A stretch of 64,000 nt of DNA from the NCBI GenBank assembly GCA_002309765.1, contig DBXY01000017.1:52820-116819 (forward strand), read 5' to 3'. Shown here piece by piece: positions 3,442 through 53,962 of this stretch (within the stretch, counting starts at the first letter, position 1; every line of letters begins with the position of its first letter). The notes below the pieces were generated by a model. That model was not told the DNA's origin and made no database searches. It saw only the letters and a list, made by a program, of their open reading frames with translations. The translations under genes and the position numbers were made by a program. The stretch is from Verrucomicrobia bacterium UBA1200. Lineage in GTDB: Bacteria > Verrucomicrobiota > Kiritimatiellia > RFP12 > UBA1067.

Positions 3442-5139
3442 CTACTCCGTAACTCTGAACTTGAAGCAGCGTGAGGTTGCTACCGAAATTCCGGTTTTAA
3501 TCACCCGGAGCCCTACCACCGCGTCGCCGGCGCTACCGGCCGGGAAAAGTTTCGGATCGGCTTTAAGCAAGAAACCCCGCCGACCGTTCTCGTCCGGCAT
3601 ATTGACCGTTACCTGCAACCCCGATTCCGGCCACACCACGTAAGGCTCGTAAATCTCCTCCCACGATTTGGTCATATACGGCGAAGAAACGTCCAGCGCC
3701 CCGCCGGCCTTGGCGGAGATTCTTGCCGTAAAGTTTGAAGCCACATTCAAAACGCGGAACTTTGCCACCCTGCCTAAGGCATAGTCAAGCCCCATCGCCT
3801 TGGGCAACGATTGGCCGTCACGCTCCTGCCGCACCGGCTCCACCGGACGGACAATGGTCTCGCCATTCACATTGGCGGACGCCGCCATATCCAGCGAGAA
3901 AGAAGTTTTCGGATAGCGGTGGCTATCGGTGGAAACCGTCATCACGCCCTTGCTCTCACCGGCGGGAATGTAGCCGCCCTCAAAGCAAATTCCCAACGGC
4001 GGGTAGCTCAAAAAAACCTGTATCGGCCCGGTATAGCCGTTCTGCCGTTCCGCTTGCAGCCACACCAATCCGCTGCCGCCGGCGGGAATACTGACCGACG
4101 CCGGCGACATCCAAACCCGGAAATCCGGGGCGGGCGGCAAATCGGAAATTAACTTGAAATCCAGTCCCGGCAAAGCCAGCGAATCACCAAAAATCGCCTC
4201 GCGGCACAGGGCTTCGTCCTTGCCGCCGGTAAATAGCCGGATCCGGTTTTGCGGCAGATTGAACCCGTCCAGCGACACGTTGGTACTGGAACCCTTTTTC
4301 GCCTCCGTCGGCGAGATGCCGGTGATAAGCGGTAGCTTTCCAAGCAGCACCCGGTAAACCGCCGAATTGATATTGTTGGTGACGGAAGTGCCAACCCGGA
4401 GTTTATAAACCCCGGTTTCGGGAATGGTCAACACCTTGGCGGACAGACCGCGGCCCAACTCGAATTTCTCCGATTTGCAAAGGCTGTCATCCGCCCCGTA
4501 GAAATTCAGTTTGGGAGTGGCCGATGAACTCGTAAACGGACGCGTTTGCCAGACCGGATAAGCCACAATCTGCTCGCCGGCAGTGGCTTGGAATCTGTAA
4601 AAATCCGCACTTTTACGGGTCAATCCGGCGCTACCGTTTAGGCACACCGGCAACGGCCCCGCGTCCCGGACACTGGACCGGTCTCTTGCGGTAATCGGCT
4701 CCGTCAATTCGCGCATCGCCCGGACATCGAACATCAGCGGTTCGCAAATCCGGACCGGATTGCAAATACGCAACTCCCTGATCCCCGGTTTCGCGTCAGG
4801 CTCAATGACCACTTTGAACCGATGGACCGGCAAACGCGCCTTGACAAGGTTGGTTTCGGATGTTCTCCCGATATAAACCGCGCGAACCCCCTCGCCGCTG
4901 ACAATGGCGGAATTCACCGTTTCCAAATTCACACCGCCCACCCGGACTTCGAACTCGCTTCCAGGCTCGCCCCCGGAAGGATAGACGTAATTGCATTGCG
5001 GCGAGATGGTCTTGTGCATGGGTGGGGAAAACGCCAACGCCGTGCCCAAGCCGGCAAAACCCGCCGCCCAAATTACGGTGCGACGGATTCTCCTGGCTAA
5101 TGCAAGGTCAATTCGTTTATTGCGAGTGGTCATCATCAA
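3442..5139 (-). CDS. Exported protein of unknown function with beta-sandwich (Ig-like) segments and a PPC-like segment
   Basis: 565 aa. N-terminal anchor/signal (RRTVIWAAGFAGLGTALA). One segment resembles a pre-peptidase C-terminal domain (SADFYRFQATAGEQIV). Gaps of 16 nt to the upstream transglutaminase-like gene and 5 nt to dxr. Confidence 0.5.
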   Translation of the reverse strand: MMMTTRNKRIDLALARRIRRTVIWAAGFAGLGTALAFSPPMHKTISPQCNYVYPSGGEPGSEFEVRVGGVNLETVNSAIVSGEGVRAVYIGRTSETNLVKARLPVHRFKVVIEPDAKPGIRELRICNPVRICEPLMFDVRAMRELTEPITARDRSSVRDAGPLPVCLNGSAGLTRKSADFYRFQATAGEQIVAYPVWQTRPFTSSSATPKLNFYGADDSLCKSEKFELGRGLSAKVLTIPETGVYKLRVGTSVTNNINSAVYRVLLGKLPLITGISPTEAKKGSSTNVSLDGFNLPQNRIRLFTGGKDEALCREAIFGDSLALPGLDFKLISDLPPAPDFRVWMSPASVSIPAGGSGLVWLQAERQNGYTGPIQVFLSYPPLGICFEGGYIPAGESKGVMTVSTDSHRYPKTSFSLDMAASANVNGETIVRPVEPVRQERDGQSLPKAMGLDYALGRVAKFRVLNVASNFTARISAKAGGALDVSSPYMTKSWEEIYEPYVVWPESGLQVTVNMPDENGRRGFLLKADPKLFPAGSAGDAVVGLRVIKTGISVATSRCFKFRVTE

Positions 5140-5155
5140 AGCCGATTGTTCTAGG

Positions 5156-8100
5156 TTATTTTGACTTGGCGTAAATAACGGTGCGCATCGAAGGATGCGA
5201 AAGGATACGGTTGTACTCCATCAGCGCGGGATAAAGCTCCGGGGGCAGCTCTCCGGCAGAGTATGAAACCTGGCGCCGGAAATGCAGCACGGTCCGACCG
5301 TCCCCGCCCTTCTCCTCATCCACCGTAAAGTCCAACGTTCCGGTGCCGTTAGGCATTTCCCAGTTCTTACCCTCGGGAAGCATCTGCCGCACACCGTAAC
5401 CGGGCGGAAGGGTCAGTTCGCAAACCCATTCGCTGGTGGAGTTGGAACGAAGGAACATCGGGGTCTGGCGGGTATCGTCGCGGAACGGGAAAACCGCGAC
5501 CGACGCGCCCGGAAGCTGCACCGTAATCACACCATCTTTGACCACCGCGAAGTTCGGCACTTTCACCTGATAAGTGCGCACACCGGGATAACTCTTCGTG
5601 TCGGTCTCCAAATCGGTGAGCGGCACCGCCGCTTTGGCAACCGCACCGACCAGTTCCAAATAATGACGGCGGCGGTCTTCTGGCAGCATCTCGTCGTATT
5701 GGCGCCGGAATGCGCCGACACTCGTGCCGTAGAATCGGTCGGTAACGGTAATCACGGCATCTCCGTTTTCGGAGAGATCAATCCGAAGTTCGTCGTAATC
5801 GCGGTTCTGCAACGGTTCCGCGACTTCCAATTGCTCGATGCGGCCTTTTCCGTTAAGCGCGTAAGCACCGTTAAGCGCCGAGGTCCCCAATTCGCTGTAC
5901 TGGTCACCTTCGTTAAGCAACCAAGTCTGGCCCTTGCAGCGGACCCGGACCACCGGGCTGGCGAAATAGCCGATTTGCGGAACTTCGCGGCTGGGATAAC
6001 CGTACTCCGGGTACATCGTGGTGTCACCGGACGCAAACAACACTTCCGCGTCAAAACCCGCCGCGTCCAACATCTCCCGCAGCAACAACGCGCGGTCGGC
6101 GGCATGGCCGTACTGGTCGGCCAACGTCTTGTCGGGGCTGGAGAAAGCGCAATCCGACGGAAGCCCGAGGAACGACGGCCCCGCCACGCGGATGGTGCGC
6201 ATCACTTCATTGCGGACCGCCAGCAGCCGTTCACGGGGATCGCGAAGGTCTTTTACCAACTCCTTGGCGCGGCGACGGGCTTCGCGGCTCTCGCCGGCGG
6301 CGGAATTCATTGCTTTGCTGAGCCGCGCGGCATGCGCTTTCCAGTCACCGCAGGACACATAAACCGCGGGCTGGAAGAAGTGCCACGGGGATTGCGAGGA
6401 CTCGTCCTTAACCGCGGGATGCGGCGCGGCGAGCGACCACGTGACGGAGTAACGCTGCGGATCGGAATCGTCAACCGTCTCCACCAACCCTTCGCCGTTG
6501 TAGGTGAAAACCGCCGGATCGCCCAGCGATTTCGGATAATTCAAGGTGTAACTCTCTTCCGCCACCGGAATGCCGCCGCCGAAAGTGTGGCAATGCGAAT
6601 AGAAATAACCATTCTTCTTGGTAACGCGGGTATGCACGGTCACCACGCTGCCCACCTCAACGCCGGGCAGGCTGATCACCTCCTGCTTGGCTCCGGGATA
6701 ACGCGGCGCCGACCCGACCCAAGACGGATCCATCATATTGATTTCCTTCGGGGTGACGTTTTTAACCTCGCCGGTCACATTGGAAACCGTAGCCGAAACC
6801 AGCTCCACCGTCTGCCACACGGGGTTGAAGCTAATGATGACTTCGGAACCCTTCTTCTTGCCGTTGTAGGTGAGAATGCGCTTCGACCAAATGTGGTCGG
6901 TGGTGTATTCGCTGCCGGAATCAAGCGTGACCACCGTGCGGTCAAACAGCACCTCCTGATCCGGCATATCTCCGCCACTGGCGGCAAACAACGGGCGCTC
7001 CCGTCCTGCGGCCTCGATGGCCTTCAAATCTTCTTTCAGCTCCAGATACTGCGCCGGCGAAAATTCGGTACCGGTAATCAAGTGTTCGCGGGTGGCGGTC
7101 AGGGCTCCGCCGTCAAATTTGACCGAAGAGTTGTACACCAACCCGTTTCGGGAAATCGACACCGGCGAAGGCAACTGGCGCGGCTCGCCCATCGCGCCGG
7201 ACAGTCCCAGACGGATCGTCTCCTTAACCCCGCACGGGACTTCGGTCTCCATCGGATAACGGCGTTTAGGCAGACCGGTCGCGCCGATGATGAAATTGAC
7301 GTAACCGAAAGCGCCGCTGAGCCAAGGCAAGTTCAGCATATCTGCACCCTCTCCCCGCACCGGATAATCCGGCACCCGCGTGGTGAGGCGGATCGAAACC
7401 GGGATTTCGGTGTTCTGCAAATCTTTCGGGGAAATCTCGCAAACCAGCACTTCGGCGCCGGGCAAACGGGATTTCAGCATCCGCTCAAAGAACCTGCGTC
7501 GGTCTTCCTCCTTATGGCGCAAGAAATAGCCGCGATAAACCGTGTCGTTAACCCCGTTCAACTTTAGGTCAGAGTTAAACAGAATTGAACCGTTCCGTTC
7601 GATTGTTCCAGAAGTCTCAATCGTGAGCAGGTTCTTTTCGGCGGGATAAACCGGCGAGACCAGCAGCGTTTCGCCCTCCGGGCGGGCCACTAGATAACTT
7701 TTGTTGCACAGATAGGCCGGAAAGATGTCACGCGTGCTTTCGTTGGTCGAGTCCATAAGCATGTAGCCGCCCTTTTCGTCGTCCACCGCGGTAATCGCGT
7801 GGTTGAAGTACGGCATAGGCGCGTCCGGGTCGCGTTTCGCTCCGACATGGATTAGCACCGGGTAGGCTTGTATGCCGGCCACCCGCAACAACGCGGCCAG
7901 CAACGCCGCCTTGTCTCGGCACACGCCGTAACGGTTCTTGAAGGTCATGCTTACGTCGTGCGGCTCGTAACCCGGCGCCACATCTTCGGTAGTGATGCCC
8001 ATGTAGCGGATTTCCTGCGAAACGAACTTGAAGATGCGGCGGATTTTCTCGTCGCGGTTTTCCGCTCCTGCCACCAGCTTAGCCACGTATTCCCGCATCT

Positions 8101-38453: not shown

Positions 38454-40856
38454 CTATCTGAACAGAACGGTTGTGCCGCCCACATAGAACAGCTTCAGGC
38501 CGGTCTCATCCGCGCGAATGAGGAATCCTCTGCGCCTGGTGTCGTCGTCGAGAGTGAAGGCGACGTTCTCCAAAGCTTCGGCCCATGTCACAAGAAGCGT
38601 GCCCGCCCCCGCAAGCGCATAGCGATCCTGCCGGCCGGCGAAGTTCACGCGGACCGCCGCGTCGGCTGCGAACGACACGTTGGCGATCGGCCACTCGCCG
38701 TTCCAGTCCACGAGGCAGAGCGTGGACTCGCCGGAGAGGGTGCATCCGTACGCGCCCGTTGCAACGGGCGTGTAGGCATTGAGGAACGAAAACGTTCCGC
38801 TTGCAATGCCGGCACCGGTGTTCAAGGCCTTCGCGCCCTCCGCGAAATCGTAGATGTAGGCCTGCATATTGGCGTTGCCGTTGAAATCGACCGCGCCGGC
38901 AGCAGACGACTCGATTCCCGCGCCATCCGCGCCGCATGGACGCGCACCGGCGCCTGCCTTGAGAATGCCTCCCTCGATCACCGTTCCGCCAGCGTAGCCC
39001 TGAAGCGCCTTCGCCATCACGAGCGTTCCAGCGCCTTCCTTCACGAGTTTCAATCCGCCCGTAAGAGCGACGGCGCAGAACGCGGTCTCGCCGTCCGCCA
39101 CCACGATGTGCAGCCTGCCGCCTACGACCGGCGTGAGCGGCTCTTCCGGCGTGTCGAACTCAGCGGAACCGGCATTCGCCTTGACATAGAATCCGCCCTC
39201 TACCAGATCGAGCATGCCCGGCCTGCCGTCGATCTTCCTGCGCACGGGCACGAAGTTGCGCACGAGCTTTCCGGCGTCGTATATCTTGCAGAACCACACC
39301 TTGCACTTGCACGGCCACCCCCCCGTAGCGGAACTGTCCGACTGGTTTATAGCGAAAAGAAAATCGTTTCCCGAGGTGTTGTTGCCGTCGGTTCTATTGC
39401 CGTTTGCGAGATCGTAGTTTATAGAGGCGTCTTCAGGGGATGTCACCGTGTTCGCGCCGCTTTTCGATATATGTATGTCGTAGACTCTGTTGGCCGTCAC
39501 ATTGTAGGAAGAAGTTCCTGCCTGGTTCTGGCACGTCTTGTTCATGAATTTGGAACCATTCAGCCATACGCCGAACTGTGTGGCGTTATTGTTGGTGTTT
39601 CTGGCGCCGTAAACGACCTGATAGCTGCCGGGACTCGTATAAGCCACGCGCACGTCAACTTCAGTCTTCGCGTTGTGGCGGTAGCCGGTGTCGATGTACT
39701 GAGTCTTGTTTCCTCCATTGGCCGATTGGGCCGCGCCGTCCTGCGTGGCCTGTAGGTAGTCATAGCGTTCGTATCCCGAAAACGCCGTGCCGAAATTGTC
39801 CGTGATCGTGCCGTCGCCGACGAGCGCCGGAACGCGGAGGTCGTATCCGGCAAGGTCGAGAACAGTGCCGGCCTCGACGATTAGGAGCGGCAGCGCGCTC
39901 CAGTCGGTGTCCTTCGCAACCACGCCGCCCACCACGACGCATTTGGCGGAGACGGAAAGGGACGCGAGGTCGTACGATGCGTCTTCCGATGTGGCGAGCC
40001 GCAGATGGCCCGATTCGTCCGCATCCGCTCCCGCGACAAAAGTCCCCGAGCCCATGTTGGGGTAGAACGTGGCGTCGTTCGCGAGATCCAGCATTCCGAG
40101 GGCGCCGTCGGCATCGCGCCGCACCGGCACCATGTCGCGCACAAGCGTGTCGCCGGAGTAGATTCTGCAGAAATAGATCTTCGCGCGGGAGATAAAGGCC
40201 GGCGCCTTTCCGTTGGCGCCAGCGTCCTGATTGATGGCGAACAGAAAATCCGTCCACGTGAGCGCGTCGCCCGCAGTGGCGGTGCCAAGGCTGACGGGCT
40301 CGCCCTCCCCAGGCGTGACCGTGCTTTCGCCGCCTTTGTCGAGATGCAGATCGTAGATTGTCGTCGTATCCACCGTAAGCGAATCGATGTTCGCCGCCGC
40401 CGCGCCGAATGCCCGGCGGAACTTGGCGTAGTTCAGCCACATCGAGAAACCTTTTGCCGTGTCGGCCTTGGTGTTTCTGGCTCCGTAAAAGCTCTGCCAC
40501 TGCTCGCCGACAGACGTGAACGAGATTCTCAGGTCAACCTTGGTGGTCGTGTCGTGAATGTATCCGGTGTCGATATACTGGCTGCCCGTGGACTGGATGT
40601 ACGCAAGCCGGGTATAGCCGCCTGAGTATTTGCTGTCGATGATTCTGCCGGCGCCGGAAAGGCCGACTACGGTCAGCGAATGGCCGTTGAGATCCATCGT
40701 CACGCCCTCCGCAATCGTCACAGTGCCTTCAGACGTCCAGTCGGCGTCTTCCGTCAACGTGACATCCTCGGTGATGTTCACCGCTGCATACGACTGCAAA
40801 GGCGCCGTCGCTACGCAGATTGCCGCCACGAATGCAATCAGTTTGCTCATGCTCAT
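38454..40856 (-). CDS. Exported 800-aa surface protein with two copies of an unclassified ~250-aa module and an autotransporter-associated beta-strand repeat region
   Basis: Signal peptide MSMSKLIAFVAAICVATAPLQSYA. Duplicated module with QYIDTGY, YGARNT, DFLFAINQ and VPVRR..DG..GMLDL. LVKEGAGTLVMAKALQGYAGGTVIEGGILKAG repeat. C-terminus ...YVGGTTVLFR. Confidence 0.7.
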   Translation of the reverse strand: MSMSKLIAFVAAICVATAPLQSYAAVNITEDVTLTEDADWTSEGTVTIAEGVTMDLNGHSLTVVGLSGAGRIIDSKYSGGYTRLAYIQSTGSQYIDTGYIHDTTTKVDLRISFTSVGEQWQSFYGARNTKADTAKGFSMWLNYAKFRRAFGAAAANIDSLTVDTTTIYDLHLDKGGESTVTPGEGEPVSLGTATAGDALTWTDFLFAINQDAGANGKAPAFISRAKIYFCRIYSGDTLVRDMVPVRRDADGALGMLDLANDATFYPNMGSGTFVAGADADESGHLRLATSEDASYDLASLSVSAKCVVVGGVVAKDTDWSALPLLIVEAGTVLDLAGYDLRVPALVGDGTITDNFGTAFSGYERYDYLQATQDGAAQSANGGNKTQYIDTGYRHNAKTEVDVRVAYTSPGSYQVVYGARNTNNNATQFGVWLNGSKFMNKTCQNQAGTSSYNVTANRVYDIHISKSGANTVTSPEDASINYDLANGNRTDGNNTSGNDFLFAINQSDSSATGGWPCKCKVWFCKIYDAGKLVRNFVPVRRKIDGRPGMLDLVEGGFYVKANAGSAEFDTPEEPLTPVVGGRLHIVVADGETAFCAVALTGGLKLVKEGAGTLVMAKALQGYAGGTVIEGGILKAGAGARPCGADGAGIESSAAGAVDFNGNANMQAYIYDFAEGAKALNTGAGIASGTFSFLNAYTPVATGAYGCTLSGESTLCLVDWNGEWPIANVSFAADAAVRVNFAGRQDRYALAGAGTLLVTWAEALENVAFTLDDDTRRRGFLIRADETGLKLFYVGGTTVLFR
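39159..39923 (-). repeat. Intragenic module copy 2 in the 800-aa protein (aa 312-566)
   Basis: DTDWSALPLLIVEAGTVLDLAGYDL...GYERYDYLQAT...QYIDTGYRHNAKTEVDVRV...VYGARNTNNN...NDFLFAINQ...VWFCKIYDAGKLVRNFVPVRRKIDGRPGMLDL. Co-linear with copy 1. Confidence 0.75.
40035..40775 (-). repeat. Intragenic module copy 1 in the 800-aa protein (aa 28-274)
   Basis: DADWTSEGTVTIAEGVTMDLNGHSL...GYTRLAYIQST..QYIDTGYIHDTTTKVDLRI...FYGARNTKAD...TDFLFAINQ...IYFCRIYSGDTLVRDMVPVRRDADGALGMLDL. Confidence 0.75.
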
Positions 40857-40943
40857 TTTGTCTTGTCCTTTTTACGTTTTGCATTGCCGCTTCTTGGGGA
40901 AACAGCTGCAACTTCCGCCAGTACCCCTTAACAAATAACTTAT

Positions 40944-40969
40944 ATTATACCCCCCCCCCTCCTTGTCAA
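40944..40969 (-). promoter_or_regulatory. Consensus -35/-10 promoter whose 14-bp spacer is mostly a G10 homopolymer (candidate phase-variable promoter)
   Basis: The minus strand reads TTGACA-AGGA-GGGGGGGGGG-TATAAT. -35 at 40964-40969, C10 on the plus strand at 40950-40959, -10 at 40944-40949. It lies 88 nt upstream of the ATG at 40856. Confidence 0.6.
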
Positions 40970-41114
40970 TTATAAAATGTAAAAAAAATATGGTCGCTCA
41001 ATGCCCCAATCCGAGGAGCCGGGAGAACGGAACGATTGCACGGCGAACGCGCCGTTCGCCGTGTCGTTGCTGGATGTTAGATAACCCCACATGCCACTTT
41101 TCCGATTCCAACAC

Positions 41115-41450
41115 CTAGATATCTCCCGTCCTGATTGGCGTCTTGCATCTTAAATTAGGACGCCACGCCGACGTATCCTCGATCGCAAACAGCCGTTTCA
41201 ACGCATTAATGTACGAAGATACCGTGTCAACCGAAATCGGCGCAGCTTCGTTCGCCACCAAGTCGGCCTTAATAACCGAAACCGCCGATTGCGTTGCCTG
41301 AAGCCGTGCACAGGAGCGCATGAGCCGTCTGGCCCGGCTTTCATTCCTCTCCACACCGTCCACCCGCGAAATGTCACGTTTAACGACTGCATCAAGATAG
41401 GCAAAAGCCCTTCTGAGTGCTGTCCACCCCGTCAACTTGTACTGTTTCAT
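41115..41450 (-). pseudogene. Internal fragment of an AAA-ATPase/DUF4143-family gene
   Basis: A 111-aa ORF (RRLMRSCARLQATQSAVSVIKADLVANEAAPISVDTVSSYINALKRLFAIEDTSAWRPNLRCKTPIRTGD) matches the middle of DUF4143 ATPases (about 400 aa). The N-terminal ATPase domain and the C-terminal third are missing. Confidence 0.65.
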
Positions 41451-53815: not shown

Positions 53816-53933
53816 CTCCCTTCTTTTCCTATCCCAAAGTTTTTTGCCGTTTATCGTTTAACCGTCAGCGCACTCCCAATTGCGACGAATAAACACAAAA
53901 AGACACAAAACCACTTAACAAATAACTATTAAA

Positions 53934-53962
53934 AGTTTAGCAAAGAAGCAACCGGTTGTCAA
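53934..53962 (-). promoter_or_regulatory. Sigma70-like promoter candidate (TTGACA-17-TAAACT) for the 1751-aa protein gene
   Basis: -35 at 53957-53962 and -10 at 53934-53939 on the minus strand. Six nt downstream comes AGTTATTTGTTAAG, which is also found downstream of the G10 promoter at 40927-40940. Confidence 0.45.

Follow-up and report, generated by a model that had tools for sequence, protein, structure and literature searches.

A run of ten G residues (G10) forms most of the spacer between perfect −35 and −10 boxes upstream of the gene for an 800-aa LamG/PATR surface-type protein in a rumen member of the Kiritimatiellae. We put the chance that this is a slippage-controlled promoter of the gene at about even, and class the element as a candidate phase-variable promoter for which switching is plausible. 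Judged by its sequence, the promoter-like architecture is real and of a known type, found here in a phylum that is unstudied. The layout recurs in relatives, long G/C tracts are confined to genes of this type in the loci surveyed, and the gene itself is intact and constrained.

The promoter-like element and its gene

A sequence-only reading of the window (the whole 64,000-nt stretch of DNA that was analysed) had placed TTGACA-AGGA-G10-TATAAT on the minus strand, with a 14-bp spacer, 88 nt before the 800-aa gene, and the sequence bears this out. The element occupies positions 40969–40944, both hexamers match the sigma70 consensus perfectly, and the ATG of the ORF lies 88 nt downstream from the last T of TATAAT. 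On the minus strand the region reads ...ttttacattttataa TTGACA AGGA GGGGGGGGGG TATAAT ataagttatttg..., and its parts are as follows.

41115–41450, minus strand: truncated DUF4143 ATPase fragment of 111 aa, the upstream neighbour and the anchor for locus retrieval
40970–40992, minus strand: AT-rich stretch catattttttttacattttataa, 5′ of the −35 box, with a putative UP-element-like role
40964–40969, minus strand: −35 hexamer TTGACA, perfect consensus (sequence, promoter scan)
40960–40963, minus strand: AGGA, the 4-nt non-repeat part of the spacer, compared with 8–9 nt (AAACTGAC) in homologous modules
40950–40959, minus strand: G10 homopolymer, C10 on the plus strand (sequence, run scan)
40944–40949, minus strand: −10 hexamer TATAAT, perfect consensus, 14 bp from the −35 box (sequence, pattern count)
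40939–40947, minus strand: overlapping alternative −10-like hexamers in the AT run TATAATATAAG
40927–40940, minus strand: 14-nt box AGTTATTTGTTAAG just 3′ of the −10 box, with an exact second copy at 53927–53914
40857–40926, minus strand: rest of the 5′ leader, with a Shine-Dalgarno-like AGGA at 40869–40866
38454–40856, minus strand: gene for the 800-aa secreted protein, an intact ORF

The AT-rich stretch contains a T8 run (T8/A8 at 40981–40988 in the run scan) and a second TATAAT that overlaps TTGACA by 1 base; alignment showed a conserved counterpart at two related loci described below (L008a and L170). Two alternative −10 hexamers overlap the consensus box. TAATAT (40947–40942) lies at a spacing of 16 bp, and the promoter scan scored TTGACA-16-TAATAT at 10 of 12 matches; TATAAG (40944–40939), read by eye from the sequence, lies at 19 bp. 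When the 258-nt intergenic region was scanned, the focal element was its only strong sigma70-like site. Reading the tract as C10 on the plus strand gave no convincing promoter and no plus-strand gene to serve. An RNA element in the leader was likewise rejected: shuffles fold as well as the 104-nt leader does (z = −0.52), and Rfam returned no family for it, only a sub-threshold match to sroE (23 bits against a gathering score of 51). Compared with the L008 modules, the focal leader carries an extra 46-nt insertion.

The earlier description of the downstream gene as encoding a signal-peptide surface-type protein also held, and PATR and LamG-like domains were found in the product. A Sec-type signal peptide spans residues 1–24, with cleavage between MSMSKLIAFVAAICVATAPLQSYA and AVNIT (...SYA/AVNIT), and one PATR repeat (TIGR02601, “autotransporter-associated beta strand”) at residues 604–635 scores over its cut-off. 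The AlphaFold model (mean pLDDT 75) contains two tandem concanavalin-like jelly rolls, which match laminin LG4-5 and neurexin LNS pairs in a structure search (E about 1e-6). Neither Pfam nor NCBIfam matched an autotransporter beta-barrel domain in the protein. A classical (type Va) autotransporter adhesin was rejected because the C-terminal beta-barrel is absent and only one PATR repeat is present, and we therefore name the protein PATR-containing rather than autotransporter. The description that suits it best is that of a secreted, lectin-like surface protein with a PATR repeat, the surface location being a prediction. Phase variation by intragenic frameshift was rejected for this gene, since G10 lies 88 nt 5′ of the ATG and the only intragenic run is a G7. 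That G7 (39318–39324), the second longest G/C run in the window, encodes a conserved ...TGGWPC... and is the same in a second haplotype and in a 90%-identical orthologue; it is probably just Gly codons.

Beyond the DUF4143 fragment lies a vapBC-like pair. The window is part of a chromosome. Among its genes are dxr, guaA, recJ, one for an oxaloacetate decarboxylase subunit and others for sugar metabolism; the nearest named Dxr homologues are in Kiritimatiellae MAGs (about 65% identity), and one assembly record carrying the locus is labelled bovine gut metagenome. Two Logan contigs from independent assemblies (L001 and L002) both break at the same base, ~42329 in the vapC-like gene, which suggests a repeat or a strain-variable junction at that point.

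The window contains a single exact match to TTGACA-N12-20-TATAAT, where 100 shuffles that preserve dinucleotides predict 0.01. By the same measure a G10 considered by itself is nothing unusual, being present in 20 of the 100 shuffles. Because the real sequence avoids long runs, the focal tract is nevertheless an outlier from the run-length decay of the genome: the window holds 314 G/C runs of 4 nt, 47 of 5, eight of 6 and one of 7, none of 8 or 9, and one of 10, so that the focal G10 is the sole G/C run of at least 8 nt in 64 kb. The frequency of G10 in shuffles, and the proneness of homopolymers to sequencing error, would fit a chance coincidence or a sequencing or assembly artefact. But six independent assemblies from six runs have the identical sequence, and with G10 read in all six of these other assemblies of the locus, an assembly artefact is rejected. 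Chance would produce the hexamer pair only 0.01 times and the same architecture recurs in other genomes, and we consider this explanation extremely improbable and effectively refuted.

Spacers of 17–18 bp had been reported for other promoter-like sites in the window, and this proved true for guaA (TTGACT-18-TAAAAT), vapB (TTGACA-18-TAATAT) and the genes for the 2815-aa protein (TTGCAA-18-TAAAAT), the 1751-aa PATR protein (TTGACA-17-TAAACT, at 53914–53962 including the 14-mer) and the 876-aa protein (TTGACT-17-TAAATT). With five sites at these distances, the normal spacing here is 17–18 bp. The overall number of consensus sites in the window is not significantly above that in shuffles; despite this lack of overall enrichment, the matches in intergenic regions 5′ of genes are coherent, and the organism appears to use a sigma70-like consensus at 17–18 bp before guaA, vapB and three large secreted-protein genes. 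The 14-mer AGTTATTTGTTAAG is found in two exact copies in the window, one downstream of the focal −10 box and one at the 1751-aa site, where 0.15 would be expected even with 2 mismatches allowed. Sharing of this 14-mer suggests a common initial transcribed region or operator. The sister promoter of the 1751-aa gene has an ordinary mixed-sequence spacer of 17 bp and no tract, so the G tract is an add-on rather than a requirement of this promoter type.

Related promoters and long tracts in the lineage

We traced the protein family into species-representative genomes and saw tracts upstream of homologues in Kiritimatiellae/Lentisphaerae MAGs. Four related promoter loci had the following layouts.

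L008a: TTGACA-AAACTGAC-G10-TAAAAT, spacer 18 bp
L008b, a paralogue 4.5 kb downstream of L008a: TTGACA-AAACCGACA-G9-TAAAAT, spacer 18 bp
Gene P0118 (L169–L171, three samples): spacer, G10 and −10 box as in L008a, 18 bp
L007, an independent promoter: TTGACT-AACA-G10-CTGA-TATACT, spacer 18 bp

The P0118 protein is 60% identical to that of L008a. In alignment A2, the window, L008a and L008b have a homologous 5′ module in common, in which an AT-rich stretch is followed by TAATTGACAA, the G tract, TAWAATA, CGTMAAAAGGACAARACAAAATGA and the start of the signal peptide. The focal TATAAT is the positional counterpart of the TAAAAT directly 3′ of the G tract in L008a, L008b and L170. With all four related loci at 18 bp, the focal 14 bp is the outlier. 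The G region measures 10 nt at all five promoter-type loci, L008b differing by a substitution and not by an indel, and what the focal copy lacks is 4 non-repeat spacer bases (4 versus 8 nt). A slipped 17-bp promoter is therefore a poor account of the 14-bp spacer: the missing bases are not repeat units, and G10 is the same as in the homologues.

The 5′ regions of these genes turn over often. A 90%-identical orthologue of the focal gene (L016) has an unrelated upstream region and first codons and no tract, and orthologues of L008a at 72–96% identity (L156–L160) have a different 5′ region, also without a tract. The break falls within the signal peptide and immediately precedes a conserved AAICVA-coding stretch. 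Unrelated 5′ regions in such close orthologues mean that 5′ cassettes have been swapped between surface-protein genes. Relative to L170 and L171, L169 has a ~155-nt deletion (about 930–945) that took out the UP-like stretch and the −35 box and left G10, the −10 box and the gene intact. Exchange and deletion of promoter cassettes are thereby demonstrated, at the level of these aligned sequences, as a second source of diversity at the 5′ ends. Tracts are not universal in the family, since the P0021/P0005 and P0105/P0108/P0113 loci have none.

A different leader was seen at other loci. In L023–L034 (about 4930–5200), in L165/L166 (1–330) and at the N-termini of P0110 and P0123, a conserved small ORF or leader, MTTGKVLNGKPYAGNPHVRFDEGEV..., is followed by the motif GGGTCTCTACTCTAC; it precedes different surface-protein genes. 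From sample to sample its junctions differ, with indels and different downstream genes. Pfam and NCBIfam gave no family for the small ORF, and the window does not contain it.

Frequent cassette turnover, with unrelated 5′ regions in orthologues of 90–96% identity and the −35 deletion of L169, would also be consistent with a relic promoter at the focal gene, in which a 4-bp spacer deletion disabled the cassette and the gene owes its transcription to read-through out of the DUF4143 fragment or to an unrecognised start. A spacer of 14 bp is too short for a working sigma70 promoter, the ORF upstream has the same orientation as the gene, and no terminator turned up when the interval separating the two was scanned. 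However, perfect hexamers and an uninterrupted tract are unexpected in a decaying relic, and two haplotypes share an identical promoter region (a single SNP in about 1250 nt upstream). The intergenic region offers no alternative promoter-like site, and the upstream gene is itself a truncated fragment. We regard a relic as unlikely.

A census of long G/C tracts covered 160 kb of non-redundant lineage loci, chosen because they flank PATR-family genes. Run lengths were bimodal, with a geometric fall to 7 nt (28 runs of 6 nt, three of 7, none of 8) and then a second group (one of 9, three of 10, two of 11, one of 14). All seven long runs (9–14 nt) lie between −300 and +40 of PATR-gene start codons; three are poly-G in promoter spacers, one is a G11 in L005 and three are poly-C. 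As in contingency loci, the long tracts stand above the run-length decay and are concentrated where surface genes begin, here within loci that flank such genes. Bimodality together with positional bias is the usual footprint of selected tracts kept for their mutability, again in loci pre-chosen beside these genes.

The G11 of L005 (244–350) is uninterrupted, lies in signal-peptide codons and is one base out of frame with a Shine-Dalgarno-bearing ATG, whereas the orthologues P0028–P0030 have G5TG4 in frame; judged from this alignment, it resembles a tract that has slipped, in a member of the same gene family. It was rejected as a spacer-type promoter, as the tract is inside the only open frame and the orthologues encode RGWGK there. 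An in-frame G7 also occurs in L165 (427–470) and L166, in codons of the signal-peptide n-region (...RGGGK/RGGK...). The poly-C tracts, on the coding strand, are a C10 in L014 (2635–2644), a C11 in L158 (1217–1227) and a C14 in L167 (1031–1044), located 157–285 nt 5′ of PATR-family genes; those of L158 and L167 have common flanks (CAAATA-Cn...TGACG). We could fit no promoter geometry to any of the three on either strand.

Tract length across assemblies and the predicted spacing states

With the exact 111-aa DUF4143 neighbour as an anchor, contigs of the locus were obtained from six sequencing runs. Five of them match the window at 100% identity, L022 among these ending before the tract, and two others (L018 and L021) represent a second haplotype of the locus. 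Tract-length variants were not detected in these consensus sequences: G10 was read in the window and in L001, L002, L018, L019, L020 and L021. The assemblies represent only two near-identical backbones, which makes this a weak test of the focal length. At the homologous P0118 promoter, G10 was likewise read in 3/3 assemblies. The sequence-only reading had held that an invariant tract would speak against it, and the result goes part of the way there, with G10 in six other assemblies of the focal locus, from those two backbones, and in all three of P0118.

The second haplotype has 74 differences, all in the gene, and only 1 SNP in ~1250 nt upstream. The differences fall in blocks (codons 42–277, 433–448 and 592–638; pS 0.074), and their clustering points to mosaic recombination or gene conversion in the gene. 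Between the haplotypes the gene has a dN/dS of 0.21, that is, it is under purifying selection and so is functional and expressed at least some of the time.

As a control, we scanned metagenomes for TTGACA-N0-14-G8+-TAWAAT and obtained at least 120 loci in 91 groups. Promoters of this form, with tracts of G8–14, are common in metagenomes from the gut and from other sources. Among the matches listed, most loci come from other gut bacteria, on contigs of about 60% GC as well as of low GC, and many lie upstream of lipoproteins with an LTGC lipobox; the spacers show modes at 18–19 and 15–16 bp. Tract length differs between assemblies in 9 of the 15 listed orthologous groups with at least two members, and in additional control assemblies for the listed matches about half deviate from the modal length. 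Contig consensus sequences are thus able to reveal tract-length variation. The focal locus was not among the metagenome matches listed (at least 120), and a scan of viral contigs for the focal module returned nothing.

G runs of 9 nt or more are intrinsically slippage-prone, so that a G10 unavoidably slips at an elevated rate, and the strength of sigma70 promoters is strongly controlled by spacer length. We propose that a sigma70-type promoter in which the slippage-prone G10 makes up most of the −35/−10 spacer drives the 800-aa gene, with a predicted start of transcription downstream. Gain or loss of G residues during replication would alter the distance and rotation between the boxes and would thereby change transcription in a heritable and reversible way. 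At G10, the perfect boxes would be at 14 bp and inactive, and TAATAT at 16 bp would be weak. At G11, TAATAT would come to 17 bp; at G12, TATAAT would be at 16 bp; and G13, with TATAAT at 17 bp, would be the strongest state. Given three overlapping −10 hexamers, output would probably be graded rather than strictly on or off. Expression would thus be expected to depend on tract length, with the sequenced G10 as a low-expression state; the stronger claim that it is OFF is unsafe, because TTGACA-16-TAATAT (10/12) and TATAAG at 19 bp are also available and because purifying selection on the gene implies some expression. The need for 3–4 successive insertions to reach 17–18 bp counts against a switch.

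The same constancy of length could mean that G10 is a fixed part of a lineage-specific PATR promoter cassette with no meaningful switching. The tract might then be a structural spacer or a regulator site, and the focal copy, a derivative minus 4 spacer bases, would fire weakly via TTGACA-16-TAATAT or need an activator. In keeping with this, the G region is exactly 10 nt at five loci and invariant in two multi-assembly loci. L008a and L008b have kept a common core from −38 to −4, the non-repeat spacer AAAACYGAC included, between flanks that have diverged; L008a and L170 are nearly the same from −55 to −6, even though their proteins share only about 60% identity. Such a conserved spacer sequence is unusual for plain sigma70 promoters. 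The 10/12 match of the 16-bp alternative and the purifying selection on the gene also fit a fixed element. On the other side, the sister promoter in the same genome has a mixed 17-bp spacer, and this promoter type can therefore do without G10. Apart from such tracts, the lineage keeps itself free of G/C runs of 8 nt or more, which is hard to explain unless long runs are selected, and the other long tracts near these genes vary (C10, C11, C14 and G11). No candidate regulator is known, and a G10 must in any case slip at an elevated rate. We consider a fixed-length element, the strongest of the alternatives, possible though not probable.

A related possibility joins this constancy to the turnover of 5′ regions. 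G10 would then be not a stochastic switch but the length-conserved core of a mobile promoter cassette that recombination moves between surface-protein genes in rumen Kiritimatiellae and that is made up of the UP-like stretch, TTGACA, a short spacer, G10, TAWAAT, the conserved leader and the signal-peptide start. Diversity of expression would come from replacement or deletion of cassettes, as in the unrelated 5′ regions and L169, and G10 would act in a sequence- or structure-specific way, for example as a regulator site. We regard this as rather doubtful.

For the slippage-controlled promoter, the tract is an uninterrupted homopolymer of the length expected of such loci (~8–9 nt or more), and the product has a signal peptide, a PATR repeat and two LamG/LNS-like folds and is presumably located at the surface. 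Variation in repeat number, sought at the level of consensus sequences that represent two near-identical focal backbones, was absent, and for this reason we do not file the element as a confirmed phase-variable member. The match to spacer-length phase variation that had been proposed from the sequence stands for the layout and for its recurrence with G9–G10 in relatives, and falls short in that no length variant was found.

Comparison with known systems

The Kiritimatiellota are abundant and mostly uncultured glycan degraders of the rumen and gut, and we know of no account of the ways in which their very large repertoires of surface proteins are varied. We found no report in the literature on phase variation in Kiritimatiellae or Lentisphaerae. 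Should the tracts switch, they would give the phylum its first described contingency-locus system and add a second PVC lineage, after Chlamydia, with homopolymers at surface-protein genes. It would be relevant to interactions with phage, protozoa and the host, and would affect gene calls in MAGs, where frameshifts at tracts can be real biology. If the length is instead conserved, the element would be an unusual case of a constant homopolymer in a promoter spacer. Either way the mechanism is of a textbook class, so the advance is taxonomic and ecological rather than conceptual.

The closest parallels are in Neisseria meningitidis, where porA (poly-G), opc and fetA (both poly-C) have a tract of ~9–14 nt in the sigma70 spacer of a surface-protein promoter. 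Expression is set by spacer length and is graded at successive lengths, and the tract differs among isolates and within cultures. The focal element resembles these in having a G/C homopolymer between the −35 and −10 boxes of a surface-protein gene. It differs in that G10 was read in every assembly, in that its spacer is 3–4 bp short rather than 1–2 bp, and in that the host is a non-pathogenic rumen member of the Kiritimatiellae and the product a LamG/PATR protein, not a porin or Opa-like protein.

In Treponema pallidum, poly-G tracts occur at the sigma70 promoters of outer-membrane genes (TP0126 and the subfamily II tpr genes), and transcription depends on the number of G residues, which varies from about 7 to 12 within and between strains. 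Here too, poly-G lies in or beside a putative sigma70 promoter and is repeated at several paralogous genes in one genome, although the gene families are unrelated and the variation documented in the treponeme was not seen at our locus. The poly-A tract of Mycoplasma hyorhinis vlp and the TA repeats of Haemophilus influenzae hifA/hifB are spacer-repeat switches with experimentally proven switching. They share with the focal element a repeat inside the promoter spacer of surface genes, lipoprotein or fimbrial in their case, and the vlp cassette is also common to paralogues; the repeat type is different, and the Kiritimatiellae element is a candidate where those are proven.

General background on homopolymer phase variation is given elsewhere (PMC5084427, PMC2831843). 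Bordetella pertussis carries homopolymeric tracts that include the fim poly-C promoters (PMC1891110). As in the window, poly-C/G is found in promoters of surface structures in a genome otherwise poor in such tracts, but the fim tract has an activator (BvgA) site on one side and the −10 box on the other, and its length variation is documented. Within the PVC superphylum, homopolymer variation has been described in Chlamydia (PMC4514472) and tracts have been predicted in Akkermansia muciniphila, there only within genes (PMC3048395). In both, as here, long G/C runs are tied to surface or capsule functions and are proposed sites of phase variation; their tracts are mostly in coding sequence, where they act by frameshift, whereas the focal tract lies in a promoter spacer.
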